Assembly: GCA_964415355.1 (NCBI GenBank)
Contig: CAYPYS010000006.1
Location: 752-64,751 of the forward strand
Direction: 5' to 3'
From: an uncultured Planctomycetia bacterium
GTDB lineage: Bacteria > Omnitrophota > Gorgyraeia > Gorgyraeales > Gorgyraeaceae
Length of the DNA: 64,000 bases
Position 1 is the first letter of the stretch; each line of letters opens with the position of its first letter. A program made the position numbers and the translations under genes. A model generated the notes under the pieces. That model saw only the letters and a list, made by a program, of their open reading frames with translations, ran no database searches and had not been told where the DNA came from. Below are positions 2,228 through 63,890 of the stretch, piece by piece.

Positions 2228-3580
2228 ATGAGAGTAGCTATTATCAGACCTAGATATTATACGCATCTTGTCACGCCTCCTCTTGGTATGGGTTATGTCT
2301 GCGCTTATCTCAAACAAGCGGGTATAAAGGCAAGTATTATAGACGGCCTCAAAGAGGGGTTGGATAATGAGCAGCTTTTAAGGCGTTGCGAAGATGCGGA
2401 TATAGTAGCTATATTCTGCATGAGCGATTATATCTGGGATGTTATTGACATTAGTAAGAGATTAAAGGGTGCAGGGAAGACAGTCGTGATAGGTGGGCCT
2501 CATGCTACCATAATGCCTAAGGAGACTCTGGGACATACTGACGCAGACTATGCGATTGTTGGTGAAGGAGAAAAGAGCATGTTGGAGCTTGTGCATGCTA
2601 TAAGCAACAAGAAAGACCCTTCGACTATCCAAGGTATTTACTCGAAGGCAACGACAAGATTTTTACCCAGGGAGTTTTTTAATAACCTAGATGAAATACC
2701 TTTTCCTGCGTGGGAGGAGATTGACCCCAGGAGTTATCCGCCAGCTCCGCATGGTGCCGTAGTAAAAGCCTTCCCTGTTGCACCTATTACGTCTTCTCGC
2801 GGATGTCCTTTTTCATGTCATTTTTGCGCCAGCCCTAAGATATGGAAGCGTCAGATAAGGTATCGTTCTGCAAAGAATGTAGTGGATGAAATAGAATTAC
2901 TTGTAAAAAAATATCAGGTAAAAGAGATTCATTTTGAAGATGACAATCTTACCTTAAAGAGATCTCATGTTGAGGGCATATGTGAAGAGATTTTAAAGAG
3001 AAGGCTTAAGGTGTATTGGGCTACACCAAACGGTATACGCGTCGATGCGGTTTCAGAGGAACTTTTAAAGTTAATGAAGAGGAGCGGATGTTACAGTGTG
3101 GCCTTTGGCATAGAATCTGGTTCACAGAAAATACTAGACAATATAGATAAAAAGACAGACTTGAAGATGATGAATTCGGCCATACGAATGGCTCATAGAA
3201 CTGGTCTAATAACACAGGCCTTTATTATTTTTGGCCTTCCCGGAGAAACGCGAAAGACCATAGAAGACACAATAAAAATGGTTATGTCTTTGCCTCTGCA
3301 TAAGTCGCAATTTTTGCTCTTGGATCTCTTGCCCGGGTCTGTTCTATGGGATAGGTTTGGAAATGGCGATATAGAACTGTTCAAAAAAAGGAGTTATCAA
3401 GAGCCTGGATTTATACCTGAAGGCCTTACAGCGGATTATCTTATTAAGGCAAGGACCCAGGCATTCAGAAGGTTTCATTTAAGGCCAAGACAGTTTTGCA
3501 TGATCCTTAGAATGTTAAAGATGAAACAAATTGGGTATATTATGCAAAGGATGAAGGATTTTTATATATTCGGAAAATAA
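2228..3580 (+). CDS. B12-binding domain / radical SAM protein (paralog)
   Basis: VAIIRPRYY...PPLGMGYVCAYL B12-like N-terminus; CPFSCHFC Cx3Cx2C; C-terminal FHLRPRQ motif shared with neighbours. Confidence 0.7.
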   Translation: MRVAIIRPRYYTHLVTPPLGMGYVCAYLKQAGIKASIIDGLKEGLDNEQLLRRCEDADIVAIFCMSDYIWDVIDISKRLKGAGKTVVIGGPHATIMPKETLGHTDADYAIVGEGEKSMLELVHAISNKKDPSTIQGIYSKATTRFLPREFFNNLDEIPFPAWEEIDPRSYPPAPHGAVVKAFPVAPITSSRGCPFSCHFCASPKIWKRQIRYRSAKNVVDEIELLVKKYQVKEIHFEDDNLTLKRSHVEGICEEILKRRLKVYWATPNGIRVDAVSEELLKLMKRSGCYSVAFGIESGSQKILDNIDKKTDLKMMNSAIRMAHRTGLITQAFIIFGLPGETRKTIEDTIKMVMSLPLHKSQFLLLDLLPGSVLWDRFGNGDIELFKKRSYQEPGFIPEGLTADYLIKARTQAFRRFHLRPRQFCMILRMLKMKQIGYIMQRMKDFYIFGK

Positions 3581-3641: not shown

Positions 3642-4844
3642 ATGAAGATAGCTTTAGTTGTAGATTGGCATTCGGAAAAGATGGGGTATTCTGATAATTT
3701 TTTACCTAAGGCCTTGGCTTCTTTGGGGCATGAGGTTCATCTGATAAGCTCTAATGGCCAGGTGTATTTTACCTCGTCTATTTACAAGGATGTCTTTGAA
3801 CCTTTTTTAGGGCCTCCGATCGTGGATTGCGGTGTGGAGGAACGCGATGGCTATACATTGCATCGTTTACCGCATGCTACTTTTAGAGGAAAAATGCGGA
3901 TAAAGGGCCTTGCGAAGAAATTACGCACGCTGCGACCAGATATAGTGCAAGCTGGCGAATTTACCTGTCTAACAACTTATGAGGCAGCATTTTTAAAGAA
4001 GATGCTAGGATATAAGTTTTTTGTAGAATGTCACGTGCACGCATCTGTTTTTCCTCCAGCTAATGGAATAGCAAGCGCAAAAGAGCGTTTTTATTGGAAT
4101 ATGTACGCCGCCACTATTGGCAAGATGGTAAACCATATGTCTGAGAGATGTTATCCCATAAGCACTGATGCTGCCGACATATTAGCTAAATTTTTTGGAA
4201 TTCAAAAAAATAAGATTGCTATAAGATCTTTAGGGGTAGATACGGATTTATTTAAACCTGTTTCTGATGAGGTTTCTAGGCAGAGACGTAGCAAGATTAG
4301 GAAAGAGCTTGGTTTTTCGGATTCGGATATTGTATGCGTATATACCGGGCGTTTCGAGTCATGCAAGAATCCTTTGTGTCTTGCGCATGCAATAAAAAAG
4401 CTTGCGGCTATAGGGGAGCCTTTTCGGGGTTTATTTATAGGATGTGGTAGCGAGGTTAACAGAGATAAGATATCGGATTCTTCATGCTGTATTACGCATC
4501 CTTTTGTTCCAGTGAAAGAATTACCCAAATTTTATCAGGCTGGCGATATAGCTGTTTGGCCTAAGCAAGAATCAACTAGCCAACTTGACGCAGCAGCATG
4601 TGGCTTACCCCTAATACTTAGCGATAAAGTAAAAGTAAAAGAACGCATAGAGGGCAATGGACTGACTTACAGGGAGGACGACATTGAGGATATGATTCGC
4701 CAATTGCTTGTTCTTCGTGATCCTGTATTACGTCAGAAAATGGGTGCTTGCGGTGCTGATAAAATGCGTAGGTCGTTTAGCTGGCATAACATTGCCAAAG
4801 AATACGCGACTGATTACGAAGATGCCTTGAGGAAAACAGGATGA
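3642..4844 (+). CDS. glycosyltransferase, GT4/GT1-like
   Basis: GT-B C-terminal region (GDIAVWPKQESTSQLDAAACGLPLILSD); weak N-terminal similarity. Confidence 0.5.
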   Translation: MKIALVVDWHSEKMGYSDNFLPKALASLGHEVHLISSNGQVYFTSSIYKDVFEPFLGPPIVDCGVEERDGYTLHRLPHATFRGKMRIKGLAKKLRTLRPDIVQAGEFTCLTTYEAAFLKKMLGYKFFVECHVHASVFPPANGIASAKERFYWNMYAATIGKMVNHMSERCYPISTDAADILAKFFGIQKNKIAIRSLGVDTDLFKPVSDEVSRQRRSKIRKELGFSDSDIVCVYTGRFESCKNPLCLAHAIKKLAAIGEPFRGLFIGCGSEVNRDKISDSSCCITHPFVPVKELPKFYQAGDIAVWPKQESTSQLDAAACGLPLILSDKVKVKERIEGNGLTYREDDIEDMIRQLLVLRDPVLRQKMGACGADKMRRSFSWHNIAKEYATDYEDALRKTG

Positions 4845-9696: not shown

Positions 9697-10664
9697 TGGA
9701 TATATTAATATTAGGAGGCGCTGGGTTTTTAGGGAGTAATTTGGTCAGGAGGTGCCTAAAGGAGCCCGGGAATAGAGTAACTGTCGTGGACTCTTTGGAT
9801 CCCAGGCTAAAAAGCACGTCTGATAATTTGAGAGAAGTTTTACAGCAGATAGAATTTATCAAAGGTGACATGAGGGATTCTGTATTAATGGGAAGGATTG
9901 TAAAAGGCAAAGATGCTATTTTTAATTGCGCAGGCCAAACCTCCCATCCATTATCGTTGACAGATCCATTTTTTGATGTCGAGGTGAATTGCGCGGGCAA
10001 TCTCACGCTTTTAGAAGCCGTAAGGAAATACAATAAAGAAGTGCCCGTGGTCTATACATCAAGCAGTACTGTTATAGGAAAGACACAGGGAGAGGTTGTG
10101 GATGAGACGCATGGCGAATTTCCGCTGGATATCTATTCAGCCAATAAAGGCGTAGCAGAGAAATATTACCGTATTTATAACCGCGTTTATGATTTAAATA
10201 CGCTGTCGCTTCGCTTTGCCAATCTCTACGGCCCCTATGGGAAAGGTTATCCCGAATTTGGGTTTATAAATTATTTTATTGCGTTGGCAATGGCAGACAA
10301 GGATATAGAGATTTTTGGGGAGGGCAGTCAGAATCGAAATGTCATGTACGTCGAAGACGCTGTGGAGCTCATTTATAGATCTATATCGCATAAGGAGATC
10401 TTCGGCAATGTCTATTTTGCAGTGCACAGGGAACATTATTCTGTTTTGGATATCGCAAGGGAGATCGTCTCTGTCTTTAAGAAAGGGAATATTAGAAAAA
10501 TAGCATGGCCTGATGTACGCAAGAGAATAGAGATAGATAATGTAATAATTTCTGCGGAAAAGCTTTGTTATGATATGAAATTTGAACCGAGATATAATCT
10601 CAAAGAAGGGCTTCTTAAGACAAGAGAGATTTTAGAAAAAAATGCACTAATTGAATCTTCTTAA
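9696..10664 (+). CDS. NAD-dependent epimerase/dehydratase (extended SDR)
   Basis: ILILGGAGFLGSNL; YSANK; GTG start preceded by aaaggag RBS. Confidence 0.65.
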   Translation: MDILILGGAGFLGSNLVRRCLKEPGNRVTVVDSLDPRLKSTSDNLREVLQQIEFIKGDMRDSVLMGRIVKGKDAIFNCAGQTSHPLSLTDPFFDVEVNCAGNLTLLEAVRKYNKEVPVVYTSSSTVIGKTQGEVVDETHGEFPLDIYSANKGVAEKYYRIYNRVYDLNTLSLRFANLYGPYGKGYPEFGFINYFIALAMADKDIEIFGEGSQNRNVMYVEDAVELIYRSISHKEIFGNVYFAVHREHYSVLDIAREIVSVFKKGNIRKIAWPDVRKRIEIDNVIISAEKLCYDMKFEPRYNLKEGLLKTREILEKNALIESS

Positions 10665-46637: not shown

Positions 46638-47701
46638 TGAAAATAGGGATAGATATTCGTCCGACACTCAAGAAGACAACAGGCATAGGCAAGTATACCC
46701 TTCATCTGATCAATGCCCTTGCAGAAGTAGATCCCGAAAATAGATATTTTCTCTACAGCAGAAAAAAGATATTGGATTTTAAAAGGCGGTTGCCAAGGTT
46801 GCCCGGCGCTAATTTTTCGCATCGCGTGGATCATTTTAAAAAAGGCGTGAGTGCAGCGATGCCGGAGATAGATATTTTCCACACCTCTTCTTATGACCTG
46901 GATAGGCCGAAAAAGGCAAAATATATCGTCACTGTCCATGATGTAATTATAAAGGCATATCCGCACGGCCATAGCGAGAAGACTATAAGAGAAACAGATG
47001 AAAAATTAAAAAAGATTTTAGGCGAGGCAGATGTGTTGGTGGCGGATTCCCATAGCACCAAAGCGGATCTGATGAGGTTTTATGATGTGGCCGAGTCAAG
47101 GGTAGCGGTAATCTATCCCGGAGTTAATTTTACGGAATACGGAATACGGGATGCGGAATGCGAAGACTATATTCTCTTTGTCGGGACGCTTGAGCCGCGA
47201 AAGAATGTAGATGGAGTCATAAAGGCGTATAGCTGGCTGAGAAAAAACTCAGGCGTGAGGCATAAGCTTTATATAGCGGGCATGAAGGGATGGATGTACG
47301 AAAATATTTTTAAGGAATACGAGAAGAGCGAATTTAAAAAAGATATTATCTTTAAAGGTTATGTAAGCGAACGAGAACTGAGCGCGTTGTACCAGAATGC
47401 GTCTTTATTCGTGTATCCGTCCTTTTATGAAGGTTTCGGGTTTCCTGTGATAGAGGCGTTTAGCTATGGAGTACCTGTTGTTACTTCGAAGACTTCTTCT
47501 TGCGGAGAGGTAGCAGGCGATAACGCATTATTGGTAGACCCTTCTAATATAAAGGAGATTAGAGAAGCAATGGCAAGACTCATTGCCGATAAAAACTTAA
47601 GGGAGCAGCTGGCGAGGCGCGGCCGAGAGAGAGCGAAGCAATTCACCTGGCGCAACACCGCCTCCGCCTTAAGTATACATTTCAACAACGTTAAAGTGTA
47701 A
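46637..47701 (+). CDS. glycosyltransferase GT4
   Basis: YPSFYEGFGFPVIEAFSYGVPVV; last 10 codons lie inside a 41-bp element. Confidence 0.7.
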   Translation: MKIGIDIRPTLKKTTGIGKYTLHLINALAEVDPENRYFLYSRKKILDFKRRLPRLPGANFSHRVDHFKKGVSAAMPEIDIFHTSSYDLDRPKKAKYIVTVHDVIIKAYPHGHSEKTIRETDEKLKKILGEADVLVADSHSTKADLMRFYDVAESRVAVIYPGVNFTEYGIRDAECEDYILFVGTLEPRKNVDGVIKAYSWLRKNSGVRHKLYIAGMKGWMYENIFKEYEKSEFKKDIIFKGYVSERELSALYQNASLFVYPSFYEGFGFPVIEAFSYGVPVVTSKTSSCGEVAGDNALLVDPSNIKEIREAMARLIADKNLREQLARRGRERAKQFTWRNTASALSIHFNNVKV

Positions 47702-47707
47702 AGTTAG
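47668..47707. repeat. 41-bp palindromic element, copy 11 (subfamily 2, tatac/ctaac variant)
   Basis: cttaagtatacatttcaacaacgttaaagtgtaaagttag. Confidence 0.85.
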
Positions 47708-47709
47708 GG

Positions 47710-47734
47710 GATTCCCGCTTTCGCGGGAATGACA
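47710..47734. repeat. REP2 copy
   Basis: gattcccgctttcgcgggaatgaca. Confidence 0.9.
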
Positions 47735-48263: not shown

Positions 48264-48303
48264 CTTAAGTATACTTTTAACATTGTTGAAATGTATACTT
48301 AAG
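48264..48303. repeat. 41-bp palindromic element, copy 12 (compensatory tatac variant)
   Basis: cttaagtatacttttaacattgttgaaatgtatacttaag. Confidence 0.85.
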
Positions 48304-48342: not shown

Positions 48343-48359
48343 ATAAGAAACCGAATATA

Positions 48360-48560
48360 TATTATATTGTTTAAGGGAAGCTGGTGTGAGTCCAGCGCAG
48401 CCCCGCTGCTGTAATAGGGTACGAAATCTGCAAAAAGTCATTGTCCTGGAGATTTAGGACGAGAAGGCGCAGAGATTAGAGCGATCCTTAAGTCAGAAGA
48501 CCTTGCAATGTGATCTTTAAAAAGCTACGCAGGGTAGCTTTGAGGGCCAAGTAAATCAGG
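48360..48560 (+). promoter_or_regulatory. cobalamin (AdoCbl) riboswitch
   Basis: GGGAAGCTGGTGTGAGTCCAGCGCAGCCCCGCTGCTGTAATAGGG core and AGTCATTGTCCTGGAGA B12-box-like segment; upstream of btuF. Confidence 0.7.
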
Positions 48561-49452: not shown

Positions 49453-49476
49453 ATTCCCGCTTTCGCGGGAATGACA
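49452..49476. repeat. REP2 copy
   Basis: gattcccgctttcgcgggaatgaca. Confidence 0.9.
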
Positions 49477-49480
49477 TGTG

Positions 49481-49519
49481 TTTAAGTTTACTTTTAACAT
49501 TGTTGAAAGTAAACTTAAG
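49481..49519. repeat. 41-bp palindromic element, copy 13 (short variant)
   Basis: tttaagtttacttttaacattgttgaaagtaaacttaag. Confidence 0.85.
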
Positions 49520-50480: not shown

Positions 50481-51278
50481 ATGCAGTCATTGGTCAGAGT
50501 GGATAGGCTTTCAGGAGGCTATTATAAAAAACTTGTAATAAAAGATGCCCTTTTTGAGATAAAAAAAGGGGATTTTTTGGGGATCATAGGGCCCAATGGT
50601 TCAGGTAAATCAACCCTTTTAAAGTTAATGACAAGGGTCTTGTCTCCGCAGTCAGGCAGTATTTTTCTTGAAGAAAAAGATATAAGAGGCATGGGGCTAA
50701 AAGAATTTTGCAGAAAGGTAGCGTTTGTGCCCCAGGATACGCTGATTAATTTTTCATTCAGCGTTGAAGAGATAGTGCTTATGGGCAGGATCCCGCATCT
50801 CAAGAGGATGCAGTTTGAGACAAAGAAGGACTTTTCAATAGCTTGCAATGCGCTTAAGCTGACAGATACCTTATATATAAAGGAGAAGGAGATAAGCCAG
50901 CTTAGCGCTGGCGAGCGCCAGAGAGTCATAATCGCAAAGGCGCTTGCGCAGGAGCCAATGCTTTTATTTCTGGACGAACCTACTTCCCATCTGGACATAG
51001 GCCACCAGGTGCAGATATTGGATCTATTGAAGAGGCTGAATAGAGAGAGCGGGCTTACAGTGGTTATGGTGATGCACGACCTGAATCTTGCGAGCGAATA
51101 TTGCAATAGGATAATGTTGTTTGATGAAGGCCGCATTTTTAAAGAGGGGACTCCTGAGCAAGTCCTGACCTATCAGAACATAGAAGCAGTATACAAGACA
51201 GTCGTGGTAGTGAAGAAGAGCCCTGTTTCTTCCAAGCCGTACGTAATACTGGTGTCGGGGAATAAGAGCATAGCCTAA
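50481..51278 (+). CDS. btuD: ABC transporter ATP-binding protein (BtuD/FecE-like)
   Basis: GIIGPNGSGKST Walker A; LSAGERQRV signature; LLFLDEPTSHLD Walker B. Confidence 0.8.
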   Translation: MQSLVRVDRLSGGYYKKLVIKDALFEIKKGDFLGIIGPNGSGKSTLLKLMTRVLSPQSGSIFLEEKDIRGMGLKEFCRKVAFVPQDTLINFSFSVEEIVLMGRIPHLKRMQFETKKDFSIACNALKLTDTLYIKEKEISQLSAGERQRVIIAKALAQEPMLLFLDEPTSHLDIGHQVQILDLLKRLNRESGLTVVMVMHDLNLASEYCNRIMLFDEGRIFKEGTPEQVLTYQNIEAVYKTVVVVKKSPVSSKPYVILVSGNKSIA

Positions 51279-51420
51279 GTTTACGCTTTAACATTGTTGA
51301 AGTAAAACCAGAGACGTTTACCGAGCCAATCGGGAACCTGTCTCATGTTTAAGGACAGGTTCCCGATTGGCTCGGTAAACGTCTCTAAAATACTTTAACA
51401 TTGTTGAAATGTAAACTTAG
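51274..51420. repeat. composite element: two 41-bp-element cores flanking a 33-bp-arm perfect inverted repeat (13-nt loop)
   Basis: ctaagtttacgctttaacattgttgaagtaaaac | agagacgtttaccgagccaatcgggaacctgtc-tcatgtttaag-gacaggttcccgattggctcggtaaacgtctct | aaaatactttaacattgttgaaatgtaaacttag. Confidence 0.85.
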
Positions 51421-51430
51421 ACAAGGTGAG

Positions 51431-51979
51431 ATGGCGACGAGATTGATATTGATCAGACATGGTGAGACAGATTATAGCACAGAGAAGAGATATTGCGGGC
51501 TTACGGATGTATGTTTGAACAAGAGGGGCATTGAACAGGCAGAAGGACTTTGTCAAAAACTTGGCGAAGAAGACGTTGATAAAGTCTATAGCAGCGATTT
51601 GAGGCGTGCATCAGAATTTGCGAAGATAGTATTTAAGAATAAAGAAATAGAACCCGCGCCTGAATTCAGGGAAATAAATTTTGGGATTTTTGAAGGATTG
51701 ACATATGAAGAGATCATGGATAGATATGCCGAGATATATAAAAAGTGGTTAAACGAGCCATACGAGAGCGTTATCCCTGAAGGTGATAGCTTGGCCGATT
51801 TTAAAAATAGGGTACAAAAGGCATTAAAAAAAATTATCCAGCTTAATAGAGGCAAGACATTGGCAATAGTTACTCATGCCGGGCCTATAAAGATAATAAT
51901 GAGAAATGTCACAAAATCCAAAAACATATGGGATATAAACCCTGAATTAGGAGGCTTCTGGAGATGCGCGTATGAGTAA
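51431..51979 (+). CDS. cobC: histidine phosphatase family protein (alpha-ribazole phosphatase CobC-like)
   Basis: RLILIRHGETDY RHG motif; operon context with cobU/T/S. Confidence 0.7.
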   Translation: MATRLILIRHGETDYSTEKRYCGLTDVCLNKRGIEQAEGLCQKLGEEDVDKVYSSDLRRASEFAKIVFKNKEIEPAPEFREINFGIFEGLTYEEIMDRYAEIYKKWLNEPYESVIPEGDSLADFKNRVQKALKKIIQLNRGKTLAIVTHAGPIKIIMRNVTKSKNIWDINPELGGFWRCAYE

Positions 51980-59773: not shown

Positions 59774-59807
59774 TTTAAGCAGGTAAGAGACAAGTAATAG
59801 ACCCCGT

Positions 59808-59848
59808 TGGTAATAAACATTGCCAACGGGGTTTTTTTATTTTCACTC
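59808..59848 (+). terminator. Rho-independent terminator
   Basis: ccccgttggtaataaacattgccaacgggg followed by ttttttta. Confidence 0.75.
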
Positions 59849-59850
59849 CC

Positions 59851-59889
59851 CTAACTTTACACTTTAACGTTGTTGAAATGTAAACTTAG
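59851..59889. repeat. 41-bp palindromic element, copy 17 (subfamily 2, GTT loop; flanked by cccc/gggg and T-run)
   Basis: ctaactttacactttaacgttgttgaaatgtaaacttag. Confidence 0.85.
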
Positions 59890-62202: not shown

Positions 62203-63852
62203 ATGGATAGAGACGCATTATATTTTCATATTTCAAATCTTATCCTGGTTCTTCTAGCGCTGGTAAGCATAGGACCTGTTTTAAATCCTTTTATCGCAAT
62301 GATTCTGATTCCCGGCACTATCGTTGGTTTTATTGTAAGCTGGCAGATAAAGGAACGCAGGCCGCAGCAGATAGATACATTTATCGGGATGCTTTCTCTC
62401 GCCGCCATTATCATTATCTTTGGACGGTTATACGATACAGCTATCGTAGTCGATAATCTCCTGAAGATTTTTTCTTTGGCCTTAGCATGGCTTACATTTT
62501 TTCAAAGCTTCGGCCTTAAAACCGGCAAAAGCTATGCGATGATGCAATTTATATCAGTAAGTTTATTACTGTCGTCTGTTGGCCTGGCCCTCGAGCAAGA
62601 GGCGTTTTACATGGTGCTCCTTACCGTTTTTCTCTTTGTGTTTATTTTTACTATGCGGTTGAATTTGGTGTGCGATAAAAAACGCAAGGGTTCTCATATC
62701 ATAGGTTATCAGCGCGAGATAATGAGCCTGCCTCAGCAGATAAAAACAGTTTCTCTTATGTTTTCGTTTATCTTGATAGTCGCTTCTTTTGTGTATCCGC
62801 TTGTCCCTAGATTTGAAAATATTTCTTTCAGACAGATACCGTCTTCTCTCGTAGGATTTCCTGAGCAGGTGCCTTTGCTCAAGATGTTTGTTAGTGCGCC
62901 GAAAACCGTAGAGGATGACAAAAAGGCCAAAGAAGCGCAATTTGTTGATGACCAGAGCAGGATAAGAGAAATAAATGACAAGAAAACAAGGGATGGCGAT
63001 AACCAAAAAGATTCCGAAGGCAAAGTCGATGGTTCTATTATTACTAGATTCCCGTCAGAGGGCTTTGATGAGAGCATAGATATATTTCAGATAGAATCCC
63101 TTACTATAGATTCAGATAAAGAAGAGGTGGCAGCCGGAGGGCAATGCAATCTCAGCGCAGAAATAAAACTGATAGACGGCTCAGTTATTCCAGTGACCGA
63201 GATCGTTGACTGGAAGGTGACCGGTTCTAAAAAGGTTTCTGTGGATAGAGGTATTCTGGTCCCAAAGGAAAAAGGCCGCATAAGCATTTCAGCCTCATAT
63301 CTGGGTAGTTTTAGCAATGATGTAGACATAAAAGTAACAGAGGCCCTGGGGGCGCAGAGAAAAATAGATTGGATGCGTAGAACGTGGACGATTTTAGCAT
63401 GGTTGATTATATTTGCCTTGCTTGGCTTGTTTTTCTGGGCTTTTATAAGGAGCAGCAGATTAAGAGAGCTGGCGATCAAGGATCCGCGGGAGTTCATAAA
63501 AGAGATATATGTCACGCTGTGCAGGGGATTTAAGATCTATGGCATCCCCAGGCTGGATTGCTTTGCCCATAGAGAATTTTTTGAATTTTCTAAAAAACTT
63601 GTATATTCAAAGCCAGAGCCGTTGTGTATTATGACTGAGAATGTGCTGGAGGCGCGTTTTTCCGCTCATGATATTTCCGCAGAGCATTCGAAGAAAATAT
63701 TGGGATTATTCCATGATGTCAGGAGGATAGTTCTTGGCAGGCCCGGATTTAAAGAGAGCGGGAAGAAATTCTTATTCACCTTGCTCATGTTGGATGTCCT
63801 GATGCTGGGGCAATTTATTGCATGTCATTCCCGTGCAAACGGGAATCCATAA
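62203..63852 (+). CDS. membrane protein with bacterial Ig-like (Big_2) domain, MoxR-operon partner
   Basis: N-terminal TM helices; Big_2-like segment (IDGSVIPVTEIVDWKVTGSKKVSVD); last 10 codons lie in an inverted REP2 copy. Confidence 0.35.
   Translation: MDRDALYFHISNLILVLLALVSIGPVLNPFIAMILIPGTIVGFIVSWQIKERRPQQIDTFIGMLSLAAIIIIFGRLYDTAIVVDNLLKIFSLALAWLTFFQSFGLKTGKSYAMMQFISVSLLLSSVGLALEQEAFYMVLLTVFLFVFIFTMRLNLVCDKKRKGSHIIGYQREIMSLPQQIKTVSLMFSFILIVASFVYPLVPRFENISFRQIPSSLVGFPEQVPLLKMFVSAPKTVEDDKKAKEAQFVDDQSRIREINDKKTRDGDNQKDSEGKVDGSIITRFPSEGFDESIDIFQIESLTIDSDKEEVAAGGQCNLSAEIKLIDGSVIPVTEIVDWKVTGSKKVSVDRGILVPKEKGRISISASYLGSFSNDVDIKVTEALGAQRKIDWMRRTWTILAWLIIFALLGLFFWAFIRSSRLRELAIKDPREFIKEIYVTLCRGFKIYGIPRLDCFAHREFFEFSKKLVYSKPEPLCIMTENVLEARFSAHDISAEHSKKILGLFHDVRRIVLGRPGFKESGKKFLFTLLMLDVLMLGQFIACHSRANGNP
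63823..63847. repeat. REP2 copy, inverted orientation, variant
   Basis: tgtcattcccgtgcaaacgggaatc. Confidence 0.8.
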
Positions 63853-63865
63853 ATACCGTTATATA

Positions 63866-63890
63866 GATTCCCGCTTTCGCGGGAATGACA
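63866..63890. repeat. REP2 copy
   Basis: gattcccgctttcgcgggaatgaca. Confidence 0.9.

Follow-up and report, generated by a model that had tools for sequence, protein, structure and literature searches.

The window analysed here, a 64,000-nt stretch of contig CAYPYS010000006.1 from an uncultivated Omnitrophota lineage, carries a block of nested palindromes between btuD and cobC, two neighbouring genes of the cluster btuFCD-cobCUTS. This block is probably a lineage-specific pile-up of selfish palindromes and not an operator or terminator: an inverted doublet that resembles the repetitive extragenic palindromic (REP) doublets forming hairpins (REPINs), built from a low-copy REP-like unit and set in a mosaic similar to the bacterial interspersed mosaic elements (BIMEs) or the intergenic mosaic elements of Neisseria (NIMEs). 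Its core (51310-51386) would represent an inverted doublet of a 33-34-nt hairpin unit that is scattered in low copy number through Candidatus Omnitrophota genomes. The doublet is embedded between two partial copies of a 41-bp REP-like palindrome that is very abundant in the host, and the whole mosaic has been inserted, in this lineage, exactly between the stop codon of btuD and the start codon of cobC.

A nested hairpin does exist between btuD and cobC, and it lies far beyond chance. Its inner inverted repeat consists of two 33-nt arms that are 100% complementary and separated by a spacer of 11 nt (51343-51353, TCATGTTTAAG); in the RNA fold, one added G-U pair leaves a loop of 9 nt. The initial annotation, which had reported perfect 33-bp arms around a 13-nt loop, was thus correct about the arms and their sequence, but not about the length of the spacer. 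The inner 77 nt (51310-51386) fold with -66.5 kcal/mol (z = -15.0), and for the single strand from 51275 to 51420 (146 nt), one hairpin with -98.7 kcal/mol is predicted (z = -18.7, for 51265-51430). By direct count, 18 of the 33 bases of an arm are G or C (55%), compared with 39% for the window. The left arm is one unit and, together with the next two bases (TC), forms a hairpin of its own with the closing stem GAGAC/GTCTC and the apex CCGA-GCCAA-TCGG. In the right unit, read on the minus strand, the closing stem is incomplete (GAGAC...GTCCT). Further copies of the arm were not found in the 64-kb window with three mismatches allowed, and dinucleotide shuffles never produced a match.

The palindrome family that encloses the doublet has the form CTTAAGTTTACATTTCAAC-NNN-GTTGAAATGTAAACTTAAG and is represented by 19 centres in the window (3588-62190), a density of about one copy per 3 kb. 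Both flanking copies show the arms that define the family, (C)TTAAGTTTAC.TTTYAAC and GTTRAA.GTAAACTTAAG around a 1-3-nt centre; each retains the centre and one complete outer arm, while the inner arm is truncated. The 16-mer CTTTAACATTGTTGAA, which forms the centre of the 41-bp palindrome, occurs exactly twice in the window, once in each flanking copy. These centres are identical in direct orientation (16/16) and match at 14 of 17 positions in inverted orientation by direct reading, and a 15-nt centre, TTTAACATTGTTGAA, is shared by the flanking copies and the neighbouring copies at 48276 and 49493. As the family is palindromic, the left and right copies also pair with each other, and their outer arms (51275-51304 and 51391-51420, 30 nt) are 83% complementary. 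The earlier description of a GC-richer inverted repeat flanked by two partial 41-bp copies therefore holds, and the notion of a second palindrome nested within or between these copies was essentially right.

All 19 sites of the 41-bp element in the window are short gaps between co-directional genes. At several of them (e.g. 10662-10664 and 51276-51278), the terminal CTTAAG or CTAAG of the element provides the TAA stop codon of the upstream gene. Six more elements, without the 33-nt unit, were found in the 9.85 kb to the right of the window (L028), and no match to the element was found in the viral contigs scanned. As relatives at 82-91% BtuD identity lack the element, the family seems to have expanded recently.

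The btuD-cobC junction was compared on contigs carrying BtuD homologues of 82-91% identity (L010-L016). Gene order upstream of btuD and cobC is the same in the relatives, and the junction there is adjacent or overlapping: in L011-L013 (BtuD 85%) and L016 (82%), the start of cobC follows the stop of btuD with 0 nt between them, as TAAATG in L011. Spacers of unrelated sequence measure 62 nt in L014 and L015 (BtuD 84%) and 129 nt in L010 (BtuD 91%), and neither the 41-bp element nor the 33-nt unit is present at any of the junctions in L010-L016. Since these junctions lack the block, the whole 153-nt spacer of the window is, as judged by this comparison, a lineage-specific insertion inside one operon. 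It follows that a conserved operator, attenuator or processing site of the btu-cob operon is excluded, and a conserved cis-regulatory RNA was likewise ruled out by the unrelated junctions of 0, 62 and 129 nt. The proposal in the initial annotation that a large operator or processing site separates two operons is not supported by these data: btuFCD-cobCUTS is regarded as one operon because btuD and cobC abut in relatives and the only riboswitch lies upstream of btuF. The insertion has remodelled the C-terminus and stop codon of btuD, whose TAA belongs to the CTAAG that ends the left 41-bp copy. The positions of these features are given in Table 1.

Table 1. Features of the btuD-cobC block and of related repeats and genes (window coordinates).
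Feature	Position	Strand	Remarks
Left arm	51310-51342	+	one 33-nt unit, AGAGACGTTTACCGAGCCAATCGGGAACCTGTC
Right arm	51354-51386	-	perfect inverted copy of the 33-nt unit
Left partial 41-bp copy	51275-51308		outer arm CTAAGTTTAC full; centre CTTTAAC-ATT-GTTGAA; truncated inner arm GTAAAAC
Right partial 41-bp copy	51388-51420		inner arm reduced to TAC; centre TTTAAC-ATT-GTTGAA; outer arm ATGTAAACTTAG full
Direct-repeat core, copy 1	51286-51301	+	CTTTAACATTGTTGAA
Direct-repeat core, copy 2	51393-51408	+	CTTTAACATTGTTGAA
ATTCCCG-N6-CGGGAAT copies	42494, 43293, 43862, 47711, 49453, 57672, 63827, 63867		
btuD-type ABC ATPase gene	50481-51278	+	265 aa; relatives mostly 262 aa, range 262-273
cobC (His_Phos_1)	51423-51979	+	182 aa; includes ribosome-binding site, ATG at 51431
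Cobalamin riboswitch	48350-48524	+	leads btuFCD-cobCUTS

Scans for the 33-nt unit used exact cores and covered this genome over the 64-kb window and the 9.85-kb extension (~74 kb). A 22-mer that includes the variable part of the arm gave no match in contigs of a one-genome-per-species collection. A 20-mer taken from the central part of the arm was found in only three other contigs of two large collections, one from a genome and two from metagenomes (L007-L009), which represent at least two other Omnitrophota lineages. There, the unit occurs as single copies at unrelated intergenic sites, with 24-31 nt identical. The copy in L009, a contig of an Omnitrophota metagenome-assembled genome (MAG) with 38% GC, is a single truncated one with 31 of 33 nt identical (AGAGACGTTTACCGAGCCAATCGGGAACCTG) and sits in a degenerate 640-nt spacer between a gene for an AAA_14/DUF4143 ATPase and surA. 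The same spacer holds, at 4690-4815, a putative decayed fragment of a DUF1016/YhcG-like pseudogene, read from the translation only.

L007 and L008, both of 51% GC and from one metagenome, carry one unit each (GGGACGTTTACCGAGCCAATCGGGAAAGTGTCCC) between housekeeping genes: in L007 between GH94 and purB, in L008 upstream of a DUF6515-ECF sigma operon and near a tRNA-Ser gene. The PurB of L007 is 75-80% identical to Omnitrophota PurB proteins, so that the assignment to Omnitrophota covers L007, not L008. In both contigs, the unit is followed by at least one direct repeat of its own 3' half (GGAAAGTGTCCC) at a spacing of ~23 nt. Direct repeats of the half-site GGGACACTTTCC at 23-24-nt spacing number four in L007 (4246-4350, corresponding to 9804-9908 of L026) and two in L008 (2020-2055), and their arrangement resembles an array of protein-binding sites. 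In L008, three tandem 66-nt repeats with copies of the 3' part of a tRNA (2247-2444) lie beside tRNA-Ser(cga) (2423-2507, minus strand); located ~200 nt from the unit, they look like an att-type scar of repeated integration. In L025, a syntenic relative of L007, the GH94-purB spacer measures 90 nt and has kept the purB promoter region, while the unit block is absent. Therefore, the unit at L007, in a different lineage, is again inserted DNA. A further contig of the Logan collection (L027) starts inside the unit.

All versions of the unit fold as a hairpin, with -13.5 kcal/mol in the window, -21.8 kcal/mol in L008 and -25.0 kcal/mol in L007. The apex CCGA-GCCAA-TCGG is invariant, and the closing stem differs between the window (GAGAC/GTCTC), L007 (CAGGGAC/GTCCCTG) and L008 (CGGGGAC/GTCCCCG). 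Double changes from A-T to G-C are seen at three pairs of this stem; with five sequences, a value as high as the observed one arises in 16-18 of 500 shuffles, and the covariation is only suggestive. At 55% GC, the unit in this 39% GC genome is nearer to the 51% GC of the L007 and L008 contigs. A blastn search with the 97-nt core against plasmids and phages returned only chance matches of 19-22 nt, the viral contigs scanned contained no copy of the unit, and no transposase gene adjoins any of the four unit loci (window, L007-L009). One further hairpin, GGGGACGTTTCCCTTC-AAGGCG-GAAGGGAAACGTCCCC, lies upstream of purB in another Omnitrophota MAG (L019, 1366-1405); it is perfect and followed by a T-run. 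Its stem (GGGGACGTTTCCC...GGGAAACGTCCCC) resembles that of the unit at 12 of 13 nt, and about one chance match of the regular expression is expected over all loci. The hairpin was not accepted as a relative of the unit; it may represent either a distant member of the family or a normal terminator. Taken together, the unit behaves like a low-copy, hairpin-forming and dispersed intergenic repeat of Omnitrophota, of which the window holds an inverted doublet.

The suggestion in the initial annotation that the palindrome is mobile-type inserted DNA consequently gains indirect support from the missing spacer in relatives, the occurrence of the unit at unrelated Omnitrophota loci and the insertion in L007 relative to L025. 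Uniqueness of the 33-bp palindrome, together with transcripts that read through unprocessed, had been named as the outcome that would speak against it; of the two, the first applies in ~74 kb of this genome, though the 33-nt unit recurs in L007-L009.

A third palindrome family, (GTC)ATTCCCG-N6-CGGGAAT(GAC), is represented by eight copies in the window compared with none in 200 shuffles. At 47670-47733 and 49453-49518, copies of the ATTCCC-N8-GGGAAT type adjoin 41-bp elements at a distance of 2-6 nt and fill the whole gap between genes. The pair at 49.45-49.52 kb fills the gap between btuF and btuC, two genes that overlap in relatives. Two copies form an inverted doublet at 63823-63890, with 29-nt arms of 86% complementarity and a 10-nt spacer (-36.2 kcal/mol, z = -7.9), which overlaps the 3' end of a 549-aa open reading frame (ORF; 62203-63852). 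Its architecture of unit, spacer and inverted unit is that of the btuD-cobC block. The examined loci of other Omnitrophota showed no ATTCCC-N8-GGGAAT repeats. Unrelated small palindromes are thus stacked repeatedly in the short gaps between genes of this genome (47.7, 49.45 and 51.3 kb).

The structure of the block, its lineage-specific insertion, the dispersed occurrence of its unit and the recurrence of mosaics in this genome stand as observations. As to the route by which the unit or the doublet arrived, we infer an end-defined process, ranked above fold-back duplication and site-specific recombination, none of them being proven. This process would be transposition or recombination by a hairpin-recognising enzyme, comparable to the REP-associated tyrosine transposases (RAYTs) of REPs and REPINs; it is proposed because arm identity stops at the AGAGAC unit boundary, precisely where the similarity to L009 begins.

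Several observations weigh against this view of the block as a pile-up of mobile palindromes. Only one copy of the doublet was found in the ~74 kb of this genome, and elsewhere only singlets of the unit were seen. The 20-mer core reaches at most one or two exact copies per genome or metagenome scanned, far below the numbers that define REPs, REPINs or miniature inverted-repeat transposable elements (MITEs). Neither a transposase nor a RAYT was found among ten small ORFs tested in the window, and no clean short target-site duplication surrounds the block. Contigs with identical BtuD or CobC contain no empty site or single-41-bp allele, all being identical, and in this nearly clonal population no polymorphism records a mobility event. 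Furthermore, the perfect match of the arms (33/33), set against the imperfect flanking 41-bp copies, could also reflect active maintenance. With regard to target sites, the bases directly flanking the arms (AAACC and AAAAT) do not match each other. A short duplication (TAAAA or AAAA) would require asymmetric element ends and was therefore discarded. The arms serve trivially as terminal inverted repeats, and direct repetition is confined to the 16-nt centre of the 41-bp host palindrome.

Among the alternatives, an inverted duplication in situ is a minor possibility. In this scenario, a single 34-nt unit stood beside or within a 41-bp element and was doubled by a replication template switch (fold-back) at the hairpin, so that the perfect palindrome would be a recent replication accident and not a transposed doublet. 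Such an event would agree with the strictly single units elsewhere, and the 33/33 identity of the arms suggests that it was very recent; moreover, the full closing stem GAGAC...GTCTC is found in the left unit only, and the GTCCT of the right unit fits a copying of the first 33 nt. However, the inverted identity ends exactly at the outer AGAGAC boundary, where a random switch should have mirrored the flanks as well, and the centres of the 41-bp copies are identical in direct and not in inverted orientation. In addition, the doublet at 63823-63890 was formed by another unit family in the same genome, and therefore doublets look like a regular product here.

Site-specific integration, with a 41-bp palindrome acting like a NIME/dRS3 or att site, is unlikely. 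A segment carrying the doublet and one 16-bp core would have recombined with a chromosomal element, and the product would consist of attL- and attR-like hybrids with direct 16-bp cores, chromosomal outer arms and foreign inner arms. In line with this, the CTTTAACATTGTTGAA repeats are direct and identical, indels break the similarity just inside them, and the outer arms are canonical. 41-bp elements also adjoin other palindromes at 47.7 and 49.45 kb, and dRS3 palindromes of Neisseria are used in this way by a phage-encoded recombinase (PMC1797815). On the other hand, a recombinase gene was not found, the insert would be only 91 nt long, and no second segment lies between split 41-bp copies in 74 kb. 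Since TTTAACATTGTTGAA is common to the copies at 48276 and 49493, the flanking copies could also be independent members of a local subfamily. An extended version is considered equally improbable: the unit might be the recognition hairpin of an uncharacterised recombinase or transposase widespread in Omnitrophota, with the 41-bp palindromes as dRS3-like landing pads and the 16-bp repeats as attL and attR, and the three families would then form a NIME-like system outside Neisseria.

Irrespective of its origin, the block lies within a transcription unit. The order of genes 3' of the cobalamin riboswitch, as assigned by Pfam families, is btuF-btuC-btuD and cobC-cobU-cobT-cobS. At the gathering threshold, this riboswitch is the only Rfam match in the whole window; the Rfam E-value mode applied to 51200-51500 yielded only generic matches to miRNA-precursor hairpins below threshold, which are meaningless. 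A promoter scan revealed no plus-strand promoter for cobC within or downstream of the block, and a terminator scan of 50800-51900 found no terminator-like site, as the plus strand has no T-run and AAAATAC follows the stem. The initial annotation had already noted that the block is not a canonical intrinsic terminator, and this candidate is ruled out by the lack of a U-tract after the stem on the transcribed strand. The ribosome-binding site of cobC (AAGGTGAG, 51423-51430) begins three bases past the outer stem and is left unpaired. Two ORFs of 17 and 21 aa that start at the CATG of the loop lack a ribosome-binding site and were disregarded. BtuD homologues at 69-81% identity carry protein names from Omnitrophica or Omnitrophota MAGs. 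In the window, 56 of the 57 ORFs that reach 90 aa lie on the plus strand, and the GC skew is positive throughout (+0.10 to +0.26). Among the few classical terminator shapes is a hairpin at 59781-59852 (CCCCGTTGGTAAT / ATTGCCAACGGGG), which precedes a T-run and follows a gene for a 547-aa protein.

Transcription of the block as part of the riboswitch-controlled btuFCD-cobCUTS mRNA would give rise to a hairpin of ~60 bp. As no plus-strand promoter was found in or after the block and cobC-cobS adjoin btuD in L011-L013 and L016, the polycistronic transcript presumably must read through it; lacking a U-tract, the block should not terminate transcription. The perfect duplex of 33-34 bp would be expected, from its structure and from the properties of RNase III and of REP hairpins, to be a good substrate for RNase III or a barrier to 3'-exonucleases. 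Either cleavage or such a barrier would uncouple the stability of the btuFCD and cobCUTS mRNAs. The translational coupling suggested by the TAAATG of relatives would at the same time be replaced by a free-standing ribosome-binding site for cobC. These effects at the RNA level would be a by-product of the insertion and not the reason for the presence of the block, which, at the DNA level, we infer to be selfish or neutral repeat DNA.

The opposite view, that the hairpin has been exapted and is retained in order to uncouple btuFCD from cobCUTS mRNA by RNase III processing or as a 3'-end barrier, is quite unlikely. RNA-selected helices normally tolerate G-U pairs and mismatches. In the block, by contrast, Watson-Crick symmetry is perfect even at positions that are unpaired in the single unit, and this points to a duplication of DNA and not to selection on the RNA fold. 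The element is, moreover, conserved in no relative examined. Since members of the population share at least 99.85% identity over 6.8 kb and are nearly clonal, fixation of the element across samples says little about selection. Exaptation would nevertheless be compatible with the location inside a polycistronic unit behind a cobalamin riboswitch, the long perfect duplex within the ~60-bp hairpin and the unpaired ribosome-binding site of cobC, and the co-transcribed hairpins of Correia elements are bound and cleaved by RNase III (PMC2649163).

That the palindrome is an assembly artefact in the form of a chimeric fold-back is virtually impossible: assemblers tend to break contigs inside palindromes, and two contigs indeed end or begin within this one (L006 at 51356, L024 at 51322), but the block is present with identical sequence, and between the unique flanks btuD and cobC, in seven independent contigs from different samples and assemblers (L001-L005, L023 and a 113.8-kb JGI contig that the window matches). 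In one of them (L003, ERZ23499079 scaffold_3698), a 10-nt deletion in cobC shortens CobC to 103 aa; the population is otherwise identical.

What is new here is that an understudied phylum has yielded a REP/REPIN-like doublet set in a BIME/NIME-like mosaic. An uncultivated Omnitrophota lineage appears to have been colonised recently by small palindromic repeats of at least three families, which are stacked, wedged between tightly coupled operon genes and even supply stop codons to upstream genes. For annotation, this implies that the 153-nt btuD-cobC spacer is probably neither promoter, operator nor terminator and that btuFCD-cobCUTS stays one riboswitch-led unit. For repeat biology, the block offers a small and clean case in which an abundant local palindrome encloses a hairpin unit that is rare and phylum-wide. 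Once complete genomes are at hand, it could help to identify the enzyme that moves such elements and its target preference. Should RNase III cut the hairpin, the block would illustrate in nature how selfish DNA rewires the relative expression of genes for B12 uptake and remodelling.

Among known elements, a Rho-independent terminator shares with the block a stable stem-loop downstream of a gene, but the block lacks a plus-strand U-tract, its stem is far longer, and it is followed by genes that are adjacent in relatives. A sigma-54 promoter, a dif/Xer site, an integron attC site, a CRISPR repeat, a Tn3-type inverted repeat and an rRNA or tRNA fragment were rejected from the sequence, as their defining motifs are lacking.

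The closest architectural likeness exists to the REPINs of the REP-RAYT system, which are inverted pairs of short imperfect palindromes with a short spacer that form one long hairpin (Bertels & Rainey 2011; PMC3116915, PMC3337134). REPINs are extragenic, occur within operons and coexist with singlet units, and either a transposed doublet or two inverted insertions have been proposed as their origin (PMC3116915, PMC3337134). The block likewise contains two inverted units (33-nt arms) around a short spacer (11 nt), and each unit is itself an imperfect palindrome that folds as a hairpin with weak covariation in its closing stem. In contrast to REPINs, it has no GTAG-type head, its arms are perfectly identical, and an abundant palindrome of another kind flanks the doublet. 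The tens to hundreds of copies per genome that are typical of REPINs are not seen in the ~74 kb scanned with exact cores only, copy number being very low, and the ten small window ORFs tested include no RAYT. MITEs require a cognate autonomous insertion sequence that shares their ends; none was found at the four unit loci or in plasmids, phages and viral contigs. Though the architecture is shared, the block should therefore not be classed as a genuine REPIN or MITE, because the abundance criterion fails on the sequence at hand and the search for an enzyme covered ten small window ORFs and the neighbours of the other unit copies.

BIMEs of Escherichia coli are mosaics of REP units with other motifs. 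As in the block, different palindromic units are combined between co-transcribed genes and clusters recur in the genome, but the sequences are unrelated, the rare unit is here enclosed by the abundant one, and binding of IHF or gyrase is not in evidence.

In Neisseria, dRS3 palindromes (consensus ATTCCCNNNNNNNNGGGAAT) flank RS segments and thereby form NIMEs, and they serve a phage-encoded recombinase as integration sites; the ATTCCC-N8-GGGAAT family of the window fits this consensus (PMC1797815). This fit could be due to convergence or to a widely shared REP type. In both systems, a short abundant palindrome flanks a rarer segment of 50-150 bp. The flanks here are, however, the 41-bp element, dRS3-like repeats being present in the window but not at the block, and there are no long arrays and no known recombinase. 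Given the different phylum, the resemblance to NIMEs may be convergent.

Correia elements of Neisseria are inverted-repeat elements of ~100-150 bp that are intergenic and, like the block, co-transcribed with their neighbours (PMC2649163). They differ in their hundreds of copies, TA target duplication, IHF site and creation of promoters, none of which was found at the block. By analogy, their processing by RNase III nevertheless makes them the best model for the likely side effect of the block at the RNA level.

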